DNA from: a virus
Taxonomy: Duplodnaviria; Heunggongvirae; Uroviricota; Caudoviricetes
Direction: 5' to 3' (one strand)
IMG/VR virus record: IMGVR_UViG_2537561977_000032
DNA length: 9,302 bases
The notes below the pieces were generated by a model. It saw only the letters and a list, made by a program, of their open reading frames with translations. It searched no databases and was not told the origin of the DNA. Below are positions 1 through 9,302 of this stretch, piece by piece. The translations under genes and the position numbers were made by a program. Position 1 is the stretch's first letter. Each line of letters begins with the position of its first letter.

Positions 1-996
1 CTAACGAACCAGCCAGACCAGCATCAGGATAATCGCGACTAACAGTATCCACAGCGCGGGACGCGTTGCCATATTTTGCAACGTGTCCATCATCGGTGGA
101 AAAGGATTAAGCAGCGGTTGCATATCACGCGGATCAATCCCTTTAACCCGCCGTTGATAAAGCTGATTAAGAATATCCTCGGCCTGGGCAGAAGAAAGCG
201 ATGATTGCGCAGAAAGACCATATTTTTGGTGGATATACGCCGATAACGCTGCCAGTTCACTGGCATCTAAAGGTTGTTTTAGCGCCATCTGTAGTGATTC
301 CAGCGTCGGCGTATTTTGCTGGCTTAACGTCTGGCGCGCCTGCAACCAGGTCACCAGATGGTTAAACAGTTTCGCTGGAATTAACTCGCCATCTTTCACC
401 CCGGAAAGTTCCAGCATCGATTGCCAGATCTGTTTGCTGGGTTCCCCCGTTGCCGCCGCAAGTTTGGTCACCAGCTGTTTTAGCGCATTGTGCTCCGCCG
501 GTAATAAAGGACGGTCGGTCGCCTCGCGCTGCTGTGGTTGCGGAATAACCATCTTCCCTTCCTGCAACAGGGTGAGAATGGTTTTTAATTGCTCCGGTGA
601 GAGCTGATTCAGCGGCGTCTGACCAAAGTTATGACGGATATAATCCGTGACCGCCTGACGATTATTCCCCAGACGTAAATACTCCCCTAATTGCGCTAAA
701 AGCTGGCGGGCAGAATGGCTTTTTTGCGCGGCCAGCAGACGTTGCGCCAGATTATGCTTAGCGGCAGGGAAGTGACGCGAAAGCAGCGGTGAATCTCCCG
801 ACAGACCAATATCGTGCCTGATACCCGCCCACAGTTCTGCTCTTTGTTGTTGCGTCAGTGAGGTCACTTTCGTCATTAAGCTTTCCAGCGAAGTACGTTG
901 CTGACTGGATAAAGGCTGATTGCCCGCGCCAGACGGCAGGTTATCTCCCTGACCTGGTGGTTGCCCAGGAGGAGGGCCGGAAATAGGTTGTATCAT
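1..996 (-). CDS. flk: Probable Flk (flagellar regulator, C-terminally membrane-anchored)
   Basis: Complete 331-codon minus-strand ORF, stop TAG at 1-3. P/Q/G-rich N-terminus (MIQPISGPPPGQPPGQ...), Q/L-rich body and a single C-terminal hydrophobic segment (ALWILLVAIILMLVWLV), matching the size (about 331-333 aa) and tail-anchored topology of enterobacterial Flk. Identity is from recall, not a search. Confidence 0.6.
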   Translation of the reverse strand: MIQPISGPPPGQPPGQGDNLPSGAGNQPLSSQQRTSLESLMTKVTSLTQQQRAELWAGIRHDIGLSGDSPLLSRHFPAAKHNLAQRLLAAQKSHSARQLLAQLGEYLRLGNNRQAVTDYIRHNFGQTPLNQLSPEQLKTILTLLQEGKMVIPQPQQREATDRPLLPAEHNALKQLVTKLAAATGEPSKQIWQSMLELSGVKDGELIPAKLFNHLVTWLQARQTLSQQNTPTLESLQMALKQPLDASELAALSAYIHQKYGLSAQSSLSSAQAEDILNQLYQRRVKGIDPRDMQPLLNPFPPMMDTLQNMATRPALWILLVAIILMLVWLVR

Positions 997-1200
997 TACG
1001 TATCCTTATACCTGAAATCTTCGCAAGTATGCCTGGCCGCGAGATTATGGCACACTTGTCCGGTTAACTCTCGTCTCATACAGGTAACACAAACGTGAAA
1101 ATCCTTGTTGATGAAAAAAACAAAGATTTAATTTATTGATATAAAAGGATTTGTATCAGCGTATGTCCACGCAGTGACCACATTTTCGAGAGGTAGAGTA

Positions 1201-1227
1201 AGCCCGCAACATTGCGGGCTTTGTCTT
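1201..1227. terminator. GC-rich hairpin next to the methyltransferase stop; possible intrinsic terminator
   Basis: Stem AGCCCGC(1201-1207) / GCGGGCT(1214-1220) with loop AACATT, followed on the plus strand by TTGTCTT. On the minus strand it lies directly after the methyltransferase TAA (1226-1228) but the downstream tract is pyrimidine-rich rather than a clean U-run. Confidence 0.4.
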
Positions 1228-2017
1228 ATGGTTCGATCGCCGTTTTGAGCCGTTGTGTTGCTACATCAAAATAATGATCACTGGTTTCTATACCAATAAA
1301 TTTTCGCCCTGCTTTCAGTGCAGCCACACCCGTTGTCCCTGACCCCATAAAAGGATCAAGGACTGTTCCGCCACTATTCACAGTCCTGACCAGTTCCGCC
1401 ATTAGTTCTTCTGGTTTTCCGGTCGGGTGCATTTTCTTTGACGGGATAACCGGGAACGTCATGCAGCCGTCGAACGGTCCCGAAGGCGATTTATCTAAAT
1501 GGCCTTTGCTGCCCCAGACGATGTATTCGCACTGATGCCGGAAATACCCGGTATGTGGTGTTCGTGACCCCCTCCCCTTGTTCCACGCAATGATTCCGCG
1601 CCATGTAAAGCCACTGGCCTGAAACGCATCGGTTAAAGCTGGTAGTTGTCGCCAGTCAGTAAATACCAGGGCATAACCGCCCGGCCTGACTGCGCGGTGT
1701 GCCTGTGCCATCCATAATTGTGTCCAGTAAGCCCACGAACGGGCGTCCATGTTTTCACCCGCGAACCCATCAAAGCGGTGAAGGTTCTCGCCGTTCAGAT
1801 ATTTTGCATGGCTGCCCTGGTTGGTGCGTCCGGCCTTGTGTGTCGCACCCGAACTGTAAGGCGGGTCAGTGATTAAGGCATCAATGCTTTCTGGCTCAAT
1901 CAGCGGCAATATTTCCAGCGCATTCCCACGACAGAGCGTGGCATTGTCAGTCTGATAAACCTTAGTGTGTTCCGGTGTATGTGCTGGTTGGTGCTGGATT
2001 GCGATCCCCACGGTCAT
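1226..2017 (-). CDS. DNA amino-methyltransferase (beta-class N6-adenine or N4-cytosine), probably orphan
   Basis: 263 aa ORF with catalytic motif IV DPPY (ALITDPPYSS) near the N-terminus and SAM-binding motif I FxGxG (LDPFMGSGTTG) near the C-terminus, the beta-class order. ATG at 2017 is preceded by GAGGAG with only a 2 nt spacer; GTG at codon 3 is an alternative start. No restriction endonuclease partner is visible in the window. Confidence 0.85.
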   Translation of the reverse strand: MTVGIAIQHQPAHTPEHTKVYQTDNATLCRGNALEILPLIEPESIDALITDPPYSSGATHKAGRTNQGSHAKYLNGENLHRFDGFAGENMDARSWAYWTQLWMAQAHRAVRPGGYALVFTDWRQLPALTDAFQASGFTWRGIIAWNKGRGSRTPHTGYFRHQCEYIVWGSKGHLDKSPSGPFDGCMTFPVIPSKKMHPTGKPEELMAELVRTVNSGGTVLDPFMGSGTTGVAALKAGRKFIGIETSDHYFDVATQRLKTAIEP

Positions 2018-2159
2018 AACTCCTCATGTGTGTGGGGTGCTCGATGGCTCTCGTTATCTGGTTAAGTGTTTTGCAGCGCGGACATTTTATTTCAATGTAG
2101 TGAAATGAGGCGCGGGCAAGTAGTTTGTTGCAATTTTTGCATCGTACATTTTGCGTCAT
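1962..2159 (-). CDS. com: Com-like zinc-finger protein (phage Mu Com family, translational activator)
   Basis: 65 aa from ATG at 2157-2159 with SD AAGAGGT 6 nt upstream; the ORF track starts it three codons earlier at GTG 2168. Sequence MTQNVRCKNCNKLLARASFHYIEIKCPRCK closely parallels Mu Com as I recall it (..IRCKNCNKLLFKADSFDHIEIRCPRCK..), a CxxC..CxxC zinc finger. Its 3' end overlaps the methyltransferase start by 56 nt, the same geometry as Mu com-mom. Confidence 0.8.
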   Translation of the reverse strand: MTQNVRCKNCNKLLARASFHYIEIKCPRCKTLNQITRAIEHPTHMRSYDRGDRNPAPTSTYTGTH

Positions 2160-2194
2160 TTGCGGCACCTCTTGTGTGGTTACTGCTGCCGATA

Positions 2195-2246
2195 TGATAG
2201 CAAATCGATCGTTTTTATCGATCGGATTTATTGCATTGATCTATCA
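2195..2246 (-). promoter_or_regulatory. Imperfect dyad with three GATC sites upstream of com-methyltransferase; candidate Dam-methylation-sensitive operator/promoter
   Basis: ATGATAGCAAATCGATCG-TTTTT-ATCGATCGGATTTATTGCATTGATCTATCAT: outer arms ATGATAG/CTATCAT, two palindromic ATCGATCG copies flanking T5, and GATC at 2207-2210, 2220-2223 and 2238-2241. AT-rich, located 35-90 bp upstream of the com start on the minus strand. Confidence 0.45.
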
Positions 2247-2297
2247 TTCCTATTGCTTATGAATAGTGTCACCTTCATTTGTGAGGGCAACAAAAAG

Positions 2298-2333
2298 AAA
2301 ACCCGCAGTTTTTACACTGCGGGTTTGTTGTTC
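2298..2333. terminator. Bidirectional rho-independent terminator
   Basis: Perfect 8 bp stem CCCGCAGT(2302-2309) / ACTGCGGG(2316-2323), loop TTTTAC, flanked by an A-run upstream and TTTGTTGTTC downstream on the plus strand. On the minus strand the stem is followed by TTTTCTTTTTGTT, so it should terminate ogr-side transcription before the com promoter region. Confidence 0.7.
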
Positions 2334-2743
2334 ATGTCTGTGAGATAGGGTGCCGTTTCGACCAACCTTAGCAACCGATTGACGGGGGATTACTCCCCCG
2401 TCGCGGTTATCTTACTTATTACATAGTAAGAATGCCGCAATTTCCGTGCCAGCAAACCTGAATCGTAACTCGCACGGTGATGTGTGGAGGATCCAGATTA
2501 TCGCTACCGCAGTTATGCAAAGTAACAGGGTTTTTAACGGAATTTGCGTCATAACGCTTGTCTCCTGAGAGGAGAGGCGCTAACCTTCTACTTGCGAAGG
2601 TAAGAAGTGTTAGGGCCTCGGTTAAACAAAAATGTTTTCCGGGGCCTTTCCACATCTGGCCTTCGGGTATTCCCTCCGACCATCAGCCGAAAGGCACCCG
2701 CGCGTAATCTATCGCTTTTTTGTTACTCCGGCAATTCTGCCTG

Positions 2744-3004
2744 TTAATTCTGAGATAAAGGCAAACTCATCTGATTGTTTCCCCTGTGTGAAGCTGGCAG
2801 ATCATGCCACGGGATACCTTCTGATGAGTGAACGCCGGAGGCGTGTTTTGATGTGAATTTATGGAAAGCTTCCAGTGTTGAGAAGCATACGCCGCATTCC
2901 AGATTGTTACACTGGTAATACTTTTGCCGCACGGTGTTTGAATCATTTTCCGGACGACTGGTGCGGATACGGGCAGATGCGCCACAAAGCGGACAACGGA
3001 ACAT
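2744..3004 (-). CDS. ogr: Ogr/Delta-family zinc-finger late-gene transcription activator
   Basis: 86 aa; ATG at 3002-3004 with SD GGGAGG 5 nt upstream. N-terminus MFRCPLCGASARIRTSR...YYQCNNLECGVCF has the C-x2-C ... C-x4-C zinc-finger pattern and the MF[HR]CPLC start typical of P2 Ogr and its relatives. Lies 42 bp downstream of gpD on the same strand, as in P2. Longer than P2 Ogr (about 72 aa) with a divergent C-terminal tail. Confidence 0.8.
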   Translation of the reverse strand: MFRCPLCGASARIRTSRPENDSNTVRQKYYQCNNLECGVCFSTLEAFHKFTSKHASGVHSSEGIPWHDLPASHRGNNQMSLPLSQN

Positions 3005-3046
3005 AGCGACCTCCCTTAACGTGGTGCTGCCGCTATTCTAAGTTGC

Positions 3047-4154
3047 TCACTCTGTTTCCGCTATCCATTCCGGGATTTTTGCCTCAAGCTCAAGCTGCGT
3101 GGTAAAGCCGCTGTTATCAATGGTGTGCCCGGCTTTTGCAATGATCCAGTCCTGATTATCAATCTCGCTTTTAAATCCTGTTACCGTGCCATGCATTTCG
3201 GGGTAGAGTTCTGCACGTCCACGCGCCAGCGTGATGGAGAATGATGCGGCTCCGCGTTGTAGTTGCTGCCACTTTGCCGCCGCTGCGCGTCTTGCTGCCT
3301 GCTCGTTCTGATAAGTCTTGCGTAACACAAACACATTGCCTTCCGCGCCTTCCATATAATCACCTTCACGGCTGCTGCTTTTCTCCTTTTTGGGTTTTGG
3401 CGGTTTACGGCGTTTCACGCTGACTTTTTCTTTTCCCGTAATTAAGATCAAGCCAGTAGGCGCGTACCCCCGTATACGCCTCGCGGTCAGCAATGCGGAA
3501 CTGATGGCGATCGCCGCTGCTGCGTGTAATGGCGAACGAGGGCAACGGCTGGCCCTGTGCGTTCACGCCACCACCTGGCATGATGAATAACAGATTGCCG
3601 CTTTTTACCGTGGTGATTGCGCCCAGCATTTCCGCCATGCGCGTAAGGAAGGACATGTCGCTTTCTTCGGTCTGGTCGGCGTGGTCGATTTCGATATCCA
3701 TCAGCATTTCGCTGATTTGCGGTTTCAGACCGTACCGGTGAGCGATGGCGGATACCACACGCTCAATGGTCACATCATGCCAGGACACCTCACGTTTAAC
3801 GTTAAATTCATCCCGAAAATCTGCGCTTCTGGCTGAAACAGTCAGCCTGTCCGGCGGTCCTTCGTGAGCGATTTCATCAACAATATAAGTGCCTTTTTCT
3901 GTCAGTGGTTCTCCTTTCCAGCCAATGAGAACCGTCAGGCGCGCGCCCCGTGGTGGTAGCTGCAACTGACCATCTGCATCATCCAGCGTGATGGTGAGCT
4001 GGTCCGCTTCAAATCCCCGGTTGTCGGTCAGTGACAGGCTCATCAGTCGCTCTGTCACGTCGGGCAGTGTTTCACCTTCCGCGAGAATATCAAAATCCGG
4101 CATTTTCACGGGGTCCGGGCCCTGACTGAGCAATTGCATGGTGGTGTCGGTCAT
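3047..4154 (-). pseudogene. D: gpD-like tail protein (phage late control gene D family), reading frame broken by a 1-nt shift in a homopolymer region
   Basis: Two overlapping minus-strand ORFs: N-part from ATG 4152-4154 (SD AGGGAGG upstream) to stop at 3405-3407, and C-part 3493-3047 in the adjacent frame. The C-part (GNVFVLRKTYQNEQAARRAAAAKWQQLQRG...TGFKSEIDNQDWIIAKAGHTIDNSGFTTQLELEAK) matches the conserved gpD C-terminal region from recall. Frames overlap at 3405-3493, where A/T runs (T5 at 3425-3429, T4 at 3431-3434) are the likely shift site. The track's upstream extension to 4286 (MIRQQ...) is not supported. Confidence 0.7.
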
Positions 4155-4311
4155 CTGTTCCCTCCCTGTGCGGCATGGTCGCATGTGCGTGCGGAGGGGG
4201 TTACTGCTTTTTGTTGTCGCCGTGGCGGGAGAACGGCGCAGGGGTGAGATTACGCGCGTGGTGGGTGATGATTGTTGCCGAATCATTTAACGGATACAAG
4301 GGGCTGAAGCT

Positions 4312-5496
4312 ATGAGTGAAACTCGTTTTCATGGTGCCCGTGTTACGGAAAGTACCAACCTGGTAACAGCGATTAATGATGTTGATTCCAGTGTTATCGG
4401 TATCGTGGCAACGGCGGATGATGCGGACGCGGAGCTGTTCCCGCTGAACAAGCCCACACTGCTGACCCGCGTCAATGACGTGCTGGGAAAATGCGGAACA
4501 ACGGGGACGCTTTATCGTGCGCTTAAGGCCATCGCAGACCAGGTGAGCACAAAGGTGATCGTCGTTCGCGTGGCTGAACACAAAGAAGAAGACGGAAAAA
4601 CGCAGGATCAACTGGTTATCGGTGGTTCTGAATCTGACGGCAGCTATACGGGGATGTATGCGCTGCTTGTTGCAGAGCAGGATGAAAGCATCGGATACCG
4701 TCCGCGTATTCTGGCCGCGCCGGAGCTGGACACGGAGGCGGTAACAAAATCCCTGTGCGTGATTGCAGGTAAACTGCGCGCGTTTGTGTATGCCTCATGT
4801 CACGGCTGTAACACGATGGCTGAGGCGATTACCTACCGCCAGAAATTCAACGAACGTGAGGTGATGCTCTTATGGCCGGACTTCATCGCCTGGAACCCGA
4901 AAAGTGGCAAAAACGAAACGTTCCCCGCGCCTGCCTATGCGTGCGGCCTTCGTGCGTACATTGACCATGAGCAGGGCTGGCACAAATCATTGTCCAACGT
5001 TCCGGTTAAAAATGTGCTGGGGATGTCGAGGCATGTGTTCTGGTCGTTGCAGGCCGAAGACAGCGATGCCAACAGCCTCAACAACAAAGAAATCACGACC
5101 ATTATTCGTCGTAACGGGTTCCGCTTCTGGGGCAACCGCACACCGGAAACGAACGCCTACATCTTTGAGGTGTATACCCGAACCGCACAGGTGCTGGCTG
5201 ATTCAATTGTGGAAGCGCAGTTTGAAACCATCGACAGTCCACTGACGCCTGCGAACGTGAAGGATGTTATCAGTGCCATCAGGGCAAAACTGGATTCACT
5301 GGTGACTGCCGGGAAACTGATTGGGGCGTCGTGCTGGTATGACGTGGTGGATAACGGCACCACGGATTTACGTCAGGGGCGCGTGCGTATTCGCTACAAA
5401 TATACGCCCGTTCCGCCACTGGAAGATATGGAGCTTTACCAGACGTTTACTGATGAATTCTTTGGTCCCGCATTTGCGGTGCTGGGAGGTGTCTGA
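4312..5496 (+). CDS. FI: Contractile tail sheath protein (P2 gpFI family)
   Basis: 394 aa, ATG 4312, stop TGA 5494-5496. Long collinear similarity to P2 FI as recalled (DADAE.FPLNKP, RPRILAAPELDT, KLRAF.Y, YRQ.F..RE.M..WPDF.AWN, QGWHK.LSNV, RRNGFRFWGNRT, YTRTAQV, Y.YTPVPPLE). Confidence 0.93.
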   Translation: MSETRFHGARVTESTNLVTAINDVDSSVIGIVATADDADAELFPLNKPTLLTRVNDVLGKCGTTGTLYRALKAIADQVSTKVIVVRVAEHKEEDGKTQDQLVIGGSESDGSYTGMYALLVAEQDESIGYRPRILAAPELDTEAVTKSLCVIAGKLRAFVYASCHGCNTMAEAITYRQKFNEREVMLLWPDFIAWNPKSGKNETFPAPAYACGLRAYIDHEQGWHKSLSNVPVKNVLGMSRHVFWSLQAEDSDANSLNNKEITTIIRRNGFRFWGNRTPETNAYIFEVYTRTAQVLADSIVEAQFETIDSPLTPANVKDVISAIRAKLDSLVTAGKLIGASCWYDVVDNGTTDLRQGRVRIRYKYTPVPPLEDMELYQTFTDEFFGPAFAVLGGV

Positions 5497-6007
5497 TGGC
5501 TGTACCAAAAAATCTTCGTTTTTTACGCTGTTTGTGGATGGTGAAAACGAAGTGGGTAAGGTGACGTCCGTCACTCTGCCTAAACTGACGCGCAAAACCG
5601 ACAGCTACCGGGGTGGTGGCATGATGGGGGCAGTAAGTATTGATCTCGGCCTGGACGACTCCGCGCTTGATGCGAGCTTTGTCATGGGGGGCGCAGTTCG
5701 TGAGTTGTTCCTGAAGTATGGCGGCACGATTGACGGTACGCTGCTGCGTTTTGCGGGTGAATACTACACCGACGCTGAAAGCGACCTGTATGAAGTCGAA
5801 ATGCGCGGACGTGTGACGGAAATTGATATGGGGGAAGCCAAACAGGGTGAGGCCACATCACACACTTACGCCATTAAAAACACCTACTACAAGCTGAGTG
5901 TTAACGATCGCCCGTTGTGGGAGATTGACCTGCTGAACTTCATTTACCGGAAGGACGGCAGGGACATTGTGCCCGATCGCATCCGTTCCGCGCTCGGGCT
6001 TGGCTGA
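5496..6007 (+). CDS. FII: Tail tube protein (P2 gpFII family); needs a -1 shift at 5519-5525 to be read full length
   Basis: ATG 5496-5498 overlaps the FI stop (TGATG) and has a perfect SD GGGAGG 6 nt upstream. Frame 0 gives MAVPKNLRF then stops after 22 codons; the -1 frame continues FTLFVDGENEVGKVTSVTLPKLTRK..SYRGGGM.GA...LGLDD to TGA 6005-6007. The joined product MAVPKNLRFFTLFVDG... fits the P2-type tube N-terminus (MA.P.KL.... LF.DG). The run at 5519-5524 has 6 T where 7 would keep one frame. Confidence 0.8.
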
Positions 6008-6061
6008 TAAGTAATATGCAGGCGGCGCAGTGCGTCGCCTCTGACTGAAAGGAGTTTCCTG

Positions 6062-6370
6062 ATGAAAGAGACGAAAAACATCGATACCGAAAACACGGTA
6101 GTTACTGACACTGTGAAAGAAACCAGTGAGCGTGGCGTAAAACTTACCCAACCAATTGAGCGAGGCGACGAAAAAATCACGTATGTGGAGATCTCCGGGG
6201 CTATTGAGCAGGCTGGTTCTCTGCGAGATTTGTCGCTGTCTGATGTGCTGAATCTGAAAGCGGAATCCATGTTTACGCTGCTGTCACGCGTGACATCACC
6301 GCGACTGGATGAAGTGACGATCAAAAAATGGCATCCCGTGACTTTATTCAGTTATGCGTGGTTGCCGTAA
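6062..6370 (+). CDS. E: Tail assembly chaperone E (P2 gpE family)
   Basis: 102 aa; ATG 6062 with SD AAAGGAG 7 nt upstream; position directly after FII and before the tape-measure gene. Acidic N-terminus and a ..RGDE.IT.V.. motif are consistent with gpE. Stop TAA 6368-6370. Confidence 0.75.
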   Translation: MKETKNIDTENTVVTDTVKETSERGVKLTQPIERGDEKITYVEISGAIEQAGSLRDLSLSDVLNLKAESMFTLLSRVTSPRLDEVTIKKWHPVTLFSYAWLP

Positions 6371-6589
6371 ATTTTTGAGCGGTGCGGACTCTGGCGGGAA
6401 GAACGAACAGGCGCCGGAAGCCTGATCACGGTTGTGTGCTTTGAGCACATAGAAGACTTTGTGGCAGATATTGCCGTTATTTTTAACTGGTCGCCCGCCG
6501 AAATCTTCATGATGACGCCCGGCGAAGTGGTTAGCTGGCGTGAGCGGGCGGCACTTCGCAGCGGGAATGCAGACAATGAAGACTCTTGA
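6371..6589 (+). other. E': E'-like extension ORF overlapping the start of T, but in the same frame as E (not -1)
   Basis: 73 sense codons straight after the E TAA, protein-like (IFERCGLWREERTGAGSLITVVCFEHIEDFVADIAVIFNWSPAEIFMMTPGEVVSWRERAALRSGNADNEDS), ending TGA 6587-6589 inside T. The sequence AAATTTTTG at 6369-6377 resembles the P2 E/E' slippery site TTTTTTG but sits in the +1 frame relative to E. Confidence 0.55.
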
Positions 6590-9302
6590 TATCCGGGTCG
6601 CTTTCAGCGCCGTTGACAGGCTGACCCGGCCTGCCGAAAACGCCCGCCGCCTGATGGGGCAGTTTGGTGACTCCATCCAGCGAACGCAGGGGGCGATCAA
6701 AAATCTCGAGCGTCAGGCGCGTTCATTTGAGCGCGCCCGTGACGCTGTCAGTAAAGCGGATGCGGGCATCGTGAAAGCACGACGCCAGCTTAACGCCCTT
6801 AATCAGTTACAACGCACGGGTACAGTGCTCAGCGAAAAACAACAAAAGCTGATGCAGCAGTTAAGCACCCGGCTTGAACGCCTGAATGAATCGCGCACAC
6901 GGGAAATTCAGAAAATGCGGGAGCTTGGCGGAGAGCTGAAACGCCACGGCATTTCCCTGACAGGCAGCGATAACACCATCCAGCAGGCCATCAGACGCAC
7001 CGGACAATACAACAACCAGCTTGAACGCGAACGGCGGGCGCTTGCGCGTGTAACGCAGGCGCGTGAGCGGTATTCACGCGCGCAGGAAACAGCGGGAAAA
7101 CTGAAAACAGGTGGTGCGCTGGCAACAGGTGCGGCGGCAGCTGGCGGCTATGCTGCCGGGCGTTTTTTGCAGCCCGCTATCGGGTTCGGCAAAGAGATGT
7201 CCCGCGTTCAGGCACTGACGCGAATCGACAAAAACAGCCCGCAGTTTAAGGCGCTGCGTGAGCAGGCGTTAAAACTTGGCTCTGAAACGCAGTTTACCGC
7301 AGGCGATGCCGCCAGTGGACAGGCATTTCTTGCAATGGCTGGCTTCACACCGCAGGCCATTCAGGCTGCGCTTCCCGGCGTGCTGAGCATGGCAACGGCT
7401 GGCGGTATGGATCTTGGCGAGACGGCGGATATTGGCTCAAATATCCTGACGCAGTTCGGCCTCTCTGCTGACCAGATGGACCGGGTTGGCGACACGCTTA
7501 CAGCAGCGTTTACCCGTACCAACACCGACCTTCGCGCACTGGGCGAAACCATGAAATATGCAGGCCCGGTGGCAGGTAAGCTGGGAATATCGCTGGAGCA
7601 GGCCGCTGCGATGGCGGGCGTGCTGGCGAATATGGGTATCAGGGGGAGTGATGCTGGCACAGCGTTGCGTAAAAGCCTTGCCAATCTGTCATCGCCGCCA
7701 AAGGCGGCAGCAGAAGCTCTGAAAGAGCTGGGCGTGTCTGTCTCCGATGCCGGGGGCAAAATGCGCCCGATGGAAGATCTGCTGGCTGACCTTTATAAAG
7801 CCACCCGCAAATACGGGGAGGTTGACCGGGTATCGTTCTTTAAGGACATCGCCGGAGGAGAGGCTTTTACATCGTTTATGGCTCTTGTTGATGCGGCAGG
7901 TAACGGCTCCTTACCCAAACTGAGAAAAGAACTTGAAGGCGCACGCGGTGAGGCTGAACGCACGGCAAAGGTTATGGCCGACAACCTTGACGGCGATCTG
8001 AAATCACTTGGCAGTGCATGGGAAGGGCTTCGTATCCGCATTGCAGATCTGATTGACGGTCCGCTGCGTTCTGTCACGCAGTGGCTCACGCGGATAGTCT
8101 CAAAAGTGACGGCGCTGGCGCAGGCCCATCCGGCACTGACGCGCCAGTTACTGATAGCGGGAGGCGCACTGCTGGCGACAACAGCAACGGTTGGTTCGTT
8201 GTCTCTGGTTATTGGGGTGCTTCACGGGAAGCTGGCCACCTTGCGTCTTGGTTTTGACATTCTTACCCGGTCAATGAATGTCGTCAGGGTGCTGCCTGCG
8301 CTGTGGGGAATGGTGACGGGTTCTGTTTCTTTGCTGGGAGGCGCTATCGGGGCGCTGTTCAGTCCGGTTGGTCTTATCGTGGCTGCGCTTGCCGGAGCTG
8401 CCGTTCTCATCTGGAAATACTGGGATCCCATCAGGGCATTTTTTGCCGGGGTGTTCAACGGGATTATGGAGCGGCTGGCCCCGTTGCGCGAAACCTTTGA
8501 ACGGTTCGGTCCTGTTTTTGATGTCGTGCGCGATGGGATTATTCAGGTCTTTAACTGGTTTAAATCGCTGCTGTCACCGATGGAGTCCAGCAAGGAAACG
8601 CTGGATAAATGCACCAGTGCTGGCGAGATATTCGGTAACGTTCTTGGTGGCGCGTTACAGCTTGTTCTGACGCCTGCAAAAATGTTGCTGGATACGCTGG
8701 CGTGGATACTTGAAAAGCTCGGAGTTCTTCCGGATGAAGCGGAAAGGGCGAGAAAGAAAATCGAAGATGCACAGCGTGCGGCCATTCTTCAGGACAGGGT
8801 TGCTCTGCTTCAGGGGGACCTGGCGAAAATCAATCCGCCGAAGTCTGCGGGAAATGGCACCGGAGGCGATAAACCCAAAGACAACAAACCGCTCACAGAC
8901 AGCAATACCGGCACATTACGCAGGCTCAGCAAAATTGCTGATAACACAGGTAAGCTGGTTGAGGAGACGAAACGTATTGGCCCCGGCGATATTGTCTTTA
9001 AGAACCTGCCCCGCGCACTTGCTGTTCGTGGGGAGTGGCAGGAGCAGAAGATTGCGCAGGTCAGTAAGCCTGCCCCCGCAATTAATATCACACCCGTGGT
9101 CCCGGCTCCGCTGCCTCCGGCGCTGGTCCCTGTTGTTGCGGCCAGCTCCCGCCCGGTGGCGGAGGCCATACGATCGCCAGTAGCATCAGTTCCTGCAACT
9201 TCCCGTAACCGGGAGCCTGTTGCCTCCGGATTTGGCGGTGAAATTCATGTTCATCTGCATAACGTTGTTACGCAGAATCCCCGCGAACTGGCGAAACTGG
9301 TC
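6576..9302 (+). CDS. T: Tail tape measure protein (P2 gpT family), 3'-truncated by the window edge
   Basis: Uninterrupted sense frame from ATG 6576 (alternative in-frame ATG at 6567) to the end of the window, at least 909 codons. Absent from the ORF track because no stop is reached. Coiled-coil-like, Q/R/E/A-rich N-terminal third (MKTLDIRVAFSAVDRLTRPAENARRL...), central G/A-rich hydrophobic segments (LLIAGGALLATTATVGSLSLVIGVL; GAIGALFSPVGLIVAALAGAAVLIW), and position after E/E' are typical of tape-measure proteins. Confidence 0.85.
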   Translation, partial: MKTLDIRVAFSAVDRLTRPAENARRLMGQFGDSIQRTQGAIKNLERQARSFERARDAVSKADAGIVKARRQLNALNQLQRTGTVLSEKQQKLMQQLSTRLERLNESRTREIQKMRELGGELKRHGISLTGSDNTIQQAIRRTGQYNNQLERERRALARVTQARERYSRAQETAGKLKTGGALATGAAAAGGYAAGRFLQPAIGFGKEMSRVQALTRIDKNSPQFKALREQALKLGSETQFTAGDAASGQAFLAMAGFTPQAIQAALPGVLSMATAGGMDLGETADIGSNILTQFGLSADQMDRVGDTLTAAFTRTNTDLRALGETMKYAGPVAGKLGISLEQAAAMAGVLANMGIRGSDAGTALRKSLANLSSPPKAAAEALKELGVSVSDAGGKMRPMEDLLADLYKATRKYGEVDRVSFFKDIAGGEAFTSFMALVDAAGNGSLPKLRKELEGARGEAERTAKVMADNLDGDLKSLGSAWEGLRIRIADLIDGPLRSVTQWLTRIVSKVTALAQAHPALTRQLLIAGGALLATTATVGSLSLVIGVLHGKLATLRLGFDILTRSMNVVRVLPALWGMVTGSVSLLGGAIGALFSPVGLIVAALAGAAVLIWKYWDPIRAFFAGVFNGIMERLAPLRETFERFGPVFDVVRDGIIQVFNWFKSLLSPMESSKETLDKCTSAGEIFGNVLGGALQLVLTPAKMLLDTLAWILEKLGVLPDEAERARKKIEDAQRAAILQDRVALLQGDLAKINPPKSAGNGTGGDKPKDNKPLTDSNTGTLRRLSKIADNTGKLVEETKRIGPGDIVFKNLPRALAVRGEWQEQKIAQVSKPAPAINITPVVPAPLPPALVPVVAASSRPVAEAIRSPVASVPATSRNREPVASGFGGEIHVHLHNVVTQNPRELAKLV

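Follow-up and report, generated by a model that had tools for sequence, protein, structure and literature searches.

Our results suggest that the unusual E/E' junction in the window (the whole stretch of DNA analysed here, 9302 nt) belongs to an ordinary tail chaperone locus that lacks two bases. Alignment with its relatives indicates that the broken register is due to two deletions, A7 to A6 at 6323-6328 and T6 to T5 at 6372-6376, and the missing A and T are most likely homopolymer under-calls in the draft assembly from which the window derives (GCA_000188815.2, contig ADUP01000056.1). The original prediction had considered a non-canonical recoding event peculiar to this lineage, either readthrough or an altered slip site, and that proposal finds no support, since no relative shares the arrangement. 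The in-frame E/E' arrangement is no biological property of the lineage, nor does it represent a new kind of recoding. It is rather a cautionary case, in that an E and E' split by a stop codon in a single frame mimics readthrough or a new slip site when the cause is two homopolymer bases missing from a draft contig.

Layout and identity of the E/E' locus

The genes on the plus strand of the window follow the order tail sheath gene (4312-5496), tube gene (from 5496), E-like ORF and T. With FII at 5496-6007, E from 6062 and T from 6576, E sits between the tail tube and tape-measure genes. The features of the locus are listed below.

6062-6370, plus strand: E ORF, 102 aa in the window as written; it ends ...KKWHPVTLFSYAWLP and its TAA is at 6368-6370
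6323-6328, plus strand: A6 run, the first deletion; A7 in relatives; the true E frame passes here from position mod 3 = 2 to position mod 3 = 1
6328-6375, plus strand: conserved E segment MASRDFIQLCVVAVNF, readable in position mod 3 = 1 only
6342 to the TGA at 6423-6425, plus strand: +1-frame stretch, opening after the TGA at 6339-6341
6369-6377, plus strand: slippery-site remnant AAATTTTTG; A AAT TTT TG in the window, GTA AAT TTT TTG in relatives
6371-6589, plus strand: E' open frame, 72 codons and a stop (TGA 6587-6589), position mod 3 = 2, the same as E
6372-6376, plus strand: T5 run, the second deletion; T6 in close relatives; inside the slip site
6375-6425, plus strand: genuine C-terminal tail of E (LSGADSGGKNEQAPEA and its TGA), displaced to position mod 3 = 0
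6377-6589, plus strand: E' coding sequence (ERCGLWREERTGAGSLITVVCFEHIEDFVADIAVIFNWSPAEIFMMTPGEVVSWRERAALRSGNADNEDS), at -1 with respect to the genuine E tail, P2-like
6576-9302, plus strand: tape-measure gene T, open for 909 codons to the window end; PF10145 PhageMin_Tail

The coordinates of the original prediction (the E ORF, the TAA at 6368-6370, the E' frame to 6589, AAATTTTTG at 6369-6377 and the +1 frame to 6425) were all recovered. Reading of the frames also bore out its description of E' as lying in frame with E, separated from it by the TAA only, and overlapping T, the overlap being 14 nt from the T ATG at 6576.

The E' frame is taken to be real coding sequence, chance being excluded, because it matches both Pfam PF06528 Phage_P2_GpE (47.4 bits against a cutoff of 23, E = 1.4e-12) and phrog_1756 (E = 2e-39). 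It has no credible start of its own and ends just inside T. The E ORF aligns with P2 gpE by BLASTP over 84 residues (E = 2e-11, 30% identity), and its residues 1-89 are genuine gpE-like tail assembly chaperone sequence. A match to phrog_103 ('tail protein'), which spans E residues 6-97, has an E-value of 2e-26 for the ORF as written and of 1e-34 for the repaired E; searches of Pfam and NCBIfam returned no match for the body of E, which was placed via PHROGs and BLASTP against P2. In its position, its gpE homology and the Phage_P2_GpE segment of E', the locus corresponds to a P2-type E / E+E' pair, and the earlier identification of a P2-type E/E+E' site agrees with the gpE BLASTP, PF06528 and the gene order. 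Taken together, these comparisons indicate a P88-like prophage (Xuanwuvirus, Peduoviridae) whose tail assembly chaperone cassette is of the standard P2 type.

What the window as written does not contain is an in-phase X XXY YYZ heptamer with E' at -1. E' shares the frame of the E start (frame 0), and the T TTT TTG is destroyed in the remnant at 6369-6377, where it is cut to TTTTTG. The heptamer and the -1 E' are found together in the six Xuanwuvirus relatives, in P2, in Klebsiella phage ST16-OXA48phi5.4, in Enterobacter phage phiT5282H and in the window once it has been repaired.

Two deletions and the reading frames of E

The relatives of the locus fall at two levels of identity, with Escherichia phages PhiR44_2, 500465-2, P88 and Chuche at 96-98.6% and phages 503458, 520873, P88_4B11 and Citrobacter phage Shae_phiSM at about 87-88%; those having a taxonomy line are all Xuanwuvirus, Peduoviridae. 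In every relative's record the matching stretch is at least 2 bases longer than the query, and in the alignment with six Xuanwuvirus phages the window has exactly two gaps, which fall at the A7 and T6 runs. Across this region the relatives read ATC AAA AAA ATG GCA TCC CGT GAC TTT ATT CAG TTA TGT GTG GTT GCC GTA AAT TTT TTG AGC GGT, and their E is continuous (121 aa, or 124 aa in the 87% group) and ends ...IKKMASRDFIQLCVVAVNFLSGADSGGKNEQATEA*, with E' at -1. Both bases, together with an intact E of 121-124 aa and a -1 E', are present in 6 P88-like Xuanwuvirus phages and in 786 complete E. coli genomes.

Codon differences between the P88 and 503458 groups bear on which frame is used between the two runs. 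The ASRDFIQLCVVAVNF frame has 7 synonymous and 2 non-synonymous codon differences, and each of the other two frames, including that of the window's E ORF, has 0 synonymous and 11 non-synonymous ones. By this measure the ASRDFIQLCVVAVNF reading is the sole frame between the runs with a coding substitution pattern. In the window the conserved E sequence between both runs is held by the third frame (position mod 3 = 1), which the original prediction had overlooked and which at 6313-6378 reads ...KMASRDFIQLCVVAVNF*, and the conserved segment at 6328-6375 aligns with P2 gpE ...LELPDLVALAGKVVGF up to the P2 slip site. The final 13 codons of the E ORF (WHPVTLFSYAWLP) and the TAA are out-of-frame sequence arising from the upstream A-run deletion. 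The alignment with P2-like E, to which the original prediction had looked for the frame of the conserved E C-terminus, does settle this point, placing it in the third frame (mod 3 = 1) and then in the +1-frame tail; what had been called a short closing ORF is the true C-terminal tail of E. Between the N-terminal part of E and E' as written there are 14 out-of-frame codons and the TAA. Since E' normally occupies the -1 frame and the sequence ahead of it is two bases short, the sharing of one frame by the N-terminal part of E and E' is, on these alignments, a coincidence.

An indel does explain the register, as the original prediction had supposed, yet it had in mind a single 1-nt indel in about 6342-6367, whereas the alignment and the gap list give two deletions, both outside that interval. 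On paper, insertion of one base in 6342-6367 would connect the frame that opens at 6062 with that of 6342-6425, and ribosomes reading through the TAA would pass from E into E', which is in frame with it across that stop. However, the relatives show no length difference in 6342-6367, the gaps being at 6323-6328 and 6372-6376; both constructions include WHPVTLFSYAWLP, which is unconserved (0 synonymous, 11 non-synonymous codon differences); and P2 gpE aligns with the other frame. A single indel in that interval or readthrough of the TAA is scarcely credible as the explanation, both being refuted by the alignments, the gap list and the codon differences. Programmed readthrough of the TAA at 6368-6370 was also considered as a mechanism in its own right and rejected, since the 13 codons that precede it have the same unconserved pattern and aligned homologues have E' at -1, never in frame with E.

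When the two bases are restored, the window gives a 121-aa E identical to the annotated E of E. coli FDAARGOS_943, T TTT TTG is back in phase and E' lies at -1. The corrected sequence thus has the canonical -1 arrangement, and the view of the site as out of register in this lineage does not hold. At the P2 slip site the repaired E+E' aligns with P2 gpE as DFIQLCVVAVNF against DLVALAGKVVGF, the P2 nucleotides there being GGT TTT TTG TCG.

Origin of the missing bases

Apart from the A6 form in four IMG/VR contigs, the E deletions are confined to this record among the sequences searched. Neither E deletion was found in any of the 786 complete E. coli genomes with a close variant (0/786); the best identity of an 81-nt probe in those genomes was 97.6%, which equals two gaps, and all 60 top matches listed for a 701-nt query span 703 nt. 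Among 94 IMG/VR contigs, 90 have A7/T6, 4 have A6/T6 and none has T5. The T5 form was likewise missing from all 786 complete E. coli genomes, all 94 IMG/VR contigs and the JGI metagenome collection, and the species-representative genomes contained neither the T5 form nor any variant of the motif. An exact-protein look-up in all indexed assemblies placed the truncated E and the D fragment on one contig, ADUP01000056.1 (GCA_000188815.2), a draft contig of 260,907 nt whose last 9302 nt are the window. Window position 9302 is thus the end of that contig and lies inside the tape-measure gene T, where the contig end may be an assembly break at a repeat; complete E. coli genomes contain up to 3 matching places per genome. 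The four A6 contigs in IMG/VR (L047, L057, L075 and L094) have differing sequence backgrounds, and two of them, L075 and L094, also differ from the window by several further single-base indels. The occurrence of A6 in four varied backgrounds, with extra indels in two, points to an error hot spot in draft assemblies, and miscalling or slippage at the A7 run appears to recur in such assemblies.

E. coli FDAARGOS_943 is the nearest complete genome, with 99.6% identity to the window over 9301 nt. All of the 1-nt gaps against it are deletions and all fall in A/T runs of 5-7, at 3425-3429, 3431-3434, 5519-5524, 6323-6328 and 6372-6376, while the central 8 kb of the window (848-8911) contains one substitution only, at 6357. 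Of the 12 A/T runs of at least 6 in FDAARGOS_943, four are 1 nt shorter in the window and a fifth is 3 nt shorter; none of the 12 is longer, and the G/C runs are unchanged. Two genes other than E are affected by the single-base deletions.

5496-6007, plus strand: tail tube gene FII, T7 to T6 at 5519-5524, a frameshift 8 codons past the ATG
3047-4286, minus strand: gene D (Phage_GPD), T6 to T5 at 3425-3429 and T5 to T4 at 3431-3434, in adjacent T runs

Addition of one T to FII gives a 170-aa tube protein. The deletions in gene D, which lie in CTTTTTTCTTTTTCC, result in ORFs of 293 and 148 aa, and repair makes these one ORF.

Several other observations were made on the window in the course of this comparison. 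The gene call for FII in the source assembly is 172 aa long and starts upstream in the wrong frame. In RefSeq, gene D of FDAARGOS_943 and of strain 503025 is 266 aa and is accompanied by a small opposite-strand pseudogene (in FDAARGOS_943, 5674-6474 of L009). The open frame of the repaired window D is far longer than the RefSeq D, and 3435-5518 is without differences from FDAARGOS_943; the short RefSeq gene D may be a start-site annotation problem. In T, 12 substitutions relative to FDAARGOS_943 cluster in a patch at 8912-9236, within which an in-frame AAA (Lys) deletion falls in an A6 run at 8970-8972. This patch looks like a genuine mosaic or recombinant segment, and error is an unlikely cause of it. 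To the left of the tail genes, window 1-3004 carries on the minus strand the host flk (1-996), a DNA methyltransferase (1226-2017), a Com-family regulator (about 1962-2159), a Hok/Gef toxin gene (about 2412-2552) and ogr (2744-3004). In the window D and ogr are divergent from FI; the P2 order is FI-FII-E-T-U-D-ogr.

Under-calling is favoured because there are five run deletions against one substitution, and because the changes are all deletions, disrupt genes that are otherwise intact and are private to a draft assembly. The WGS accessions of the ADUP series are presumably of the pyrosequencing era; a literature search by the assembly accession returned nothing on the sequencing platform. Certain points speak against an artefact. 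In the 7.6 kb of host DNA that adjoins the prophage on this contig there are no homopolymer indels and every gene is full length, whereas some indels might be expected if errors were spread evenly through the assembly. With just two A/T runs of 6, the longest in that stretch, this test has little power. Five consensus errors per 9.3 kb is high even for pyrosequencing-era drafts, and homopolymer slippage is the commonest natural route to frameshift mutations.

The main rival explanation is a prophage decaying by replication slippage at homopolymer runs, in which the five deletions in E, D and FII are genuine. E would then be a pseudogene with a truncated 102-aa product, there would be no E+E' and no tail assembly, and the finding would amount to an ordinary defective prophage. 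The intact host genes that flank it on ADUP01000056.1 fit such decay, as do slippage at A/T runs as the usual natural source of frameshifts, the change of A7 to A6 in 4 of the 94 IMG/VR contigs, which are of other backgrounds, and the location of every lesion in tail genes that are dispensable to a cryptic prophage. It is difficult, however, to reconcile decay with 5 single-base deletions against 1 substitution over 8 kb relative to the nearest genome, since in natural E. coli divergence the ratio of indels to substitutions should be far from 5:1. The changes are also deletions only, with zero insertions, either E deletion is absent from all 786 finished genomes, and two of the A6 contigs, L075 and L094, have further single-base indels relative to the window. 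We regard genuine decay as rather unlikely.

If the sequence were instead correct, E and E+E' could in principle still be made by compensatory double slippage at the shortened runs. A -1 slip on C AAA AAA U (6322-6329) would first bring ribosomes into the conserved frame, after which a second -1 slip on A AAT TTT (6369-6375) would finish E, or a prfB-type 'shifty stop', UUU UGA G (6373-6379), would let them slip +1 into E'. Both shortened runs are still slippery sequences. The conserved frame reads AAT TTT TGA, in which A AAT TTT keeps the X XXY YYZ pattern in phase and gives access to the E tail, and the UGA after UUU permits perfect +1 re-pairing into E'. Compensatory frameshifting at run indels and shifty stops are both documented phenomena (PMC5009743). 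Nevertheless, the arrangement is absent from every other sequence searched, so there is no sign of selection, and it requires two low-efficiency events in series, the first on a C AAA AAA U that does not form a heptamer in phase. The same kind of damage in D and FII has no comparable rescue route. No Shine-Dalgarno-like stimulator was found upstream of UUU UGA in the window sequence, and RNA structure downstream, at 6377-6450, is not significant (z = -1.27; 18/200 shuffles fold as well). The prfB-type +1 shifty stop was also rejected as a candidate in itself, UUU UGA at 6373-6378 being unique to the window sequence and without a Shine-Dalgarno-like element. Double slippage is thus very improbable here; if true, it would be a case of a natural indel with compensatory frameshifting in a phage tail-chaperone gene, of interest to recoding specialists.

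The intact cassette and related systems

In the intact form, E (121 aa) would be translated from the ATG at 6062, and the majority of ribosomes would reach the E stop. A minority would slip -1 on the heptamer in A AAT TTT TTG, about 17 codons before the E stop, and read on through E', which stops 14 nt inside T, to give an E+E' of about 176 aa. Both E and E+E' would then act as tape-measure chaperones in tail assembly. That this phage would produce both proteins we infer by homology with P2 and lambda. P2 makes its gpE/gpE+E' chaperones by programmed -1 frameshifting at T TTT TTG (Christie et al. 2002, as cited in PMC3091744 and PMC5009743). In PMC3091744 the P2 E/E+E' frameshift is attributed to Christie et al. 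2002 and Xu et al. 2004, and it is from the literature on P2 (Christie et al. 2002, as cited there) that E and E+E' are described as made and required for tail assembly. The P2 site is likewise without significant downstream RNA structure (PMC3091744). The P2-type -1 frameshift for E and E+E' is already known, and it is fully canonical in every relative examined.

All relatives from four other Peduoviridae genera show an X XXY YYZ heptamer that is in phase here, with E' at -1, and the -1-frame E' ORF is conserved in P88, 503458, ST16-OXA48phi5.4, phiT5282H and P2. The heptamer itself varies at the homologous position within Peduoviridae. The P88 group has the overlapping A AAT TTT and T TTT TTG; the 503458 group (503458, P88_4B11 and Shae_phiSM; about 781-790 in L004/L005/L006) has A AAT TTT only, followed by ATG; ST16-OXA48phi5.4 has C CCT TTC; and phiT5282H has C CCT TTT plus T TTT TTG. 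The slip heptamers are at 641 in L108 and at 608-617 in L109. In public records (P88, PhiR44_2, Chuche, 503458, P88_4B11 and E. coli RefSeq) E' is given as a free-standing 51-aa 'GpE family' ORF that starts at an internal GTG (VCFEHIEDF...), the -1 fusion E+E' being unannotated, and the Shae_phiSM record has E' without any annotation.

Escherichia phage P88 and further E. coli prophages of the genus Xuanwuvirus, such as the one beside flk in FDAARGOS_943, have 98-99.6% nucleotide identity over E/E'/T and the same neighbour genes, but, unlike the window, they have A7, T6 and an intact E. P2 itself has the same gene order of FII, E, E' and T, and its E' has a Phage_P2_GpE domain and ends a few codons inside T, as here. 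The T TTT TTG of the repaired window is at the homologous ...V-x-F-L-S... position, with E' at -1, whereas the window as written is one base short in two runs, which abolishes the heptamer and leaves the frames mismatched. There are also differences between P2 and the intact relatives. The E of P2 is 91 aa rather than 121 aa, its slip site is 7 codons from the E stop rather than 17, and the intact relatives have a second in-phase heptamer, A AAT TTT, overlapping T TTT TTG.

Frameshifting in tail chaperone genes is conserved among tailed phages (Xu et al. 2004; reviewed in PMC5009743). The gpG/gpGT pair of lambda has no detectable sequence relationship to E/E' and its slip site is G GGA AAG, yet lambda likewise encodes, between its tube and tape-measure genes, two proteins with a common N-terminus, the longer of which results from -1 slippage near the end of the shorter ORF.
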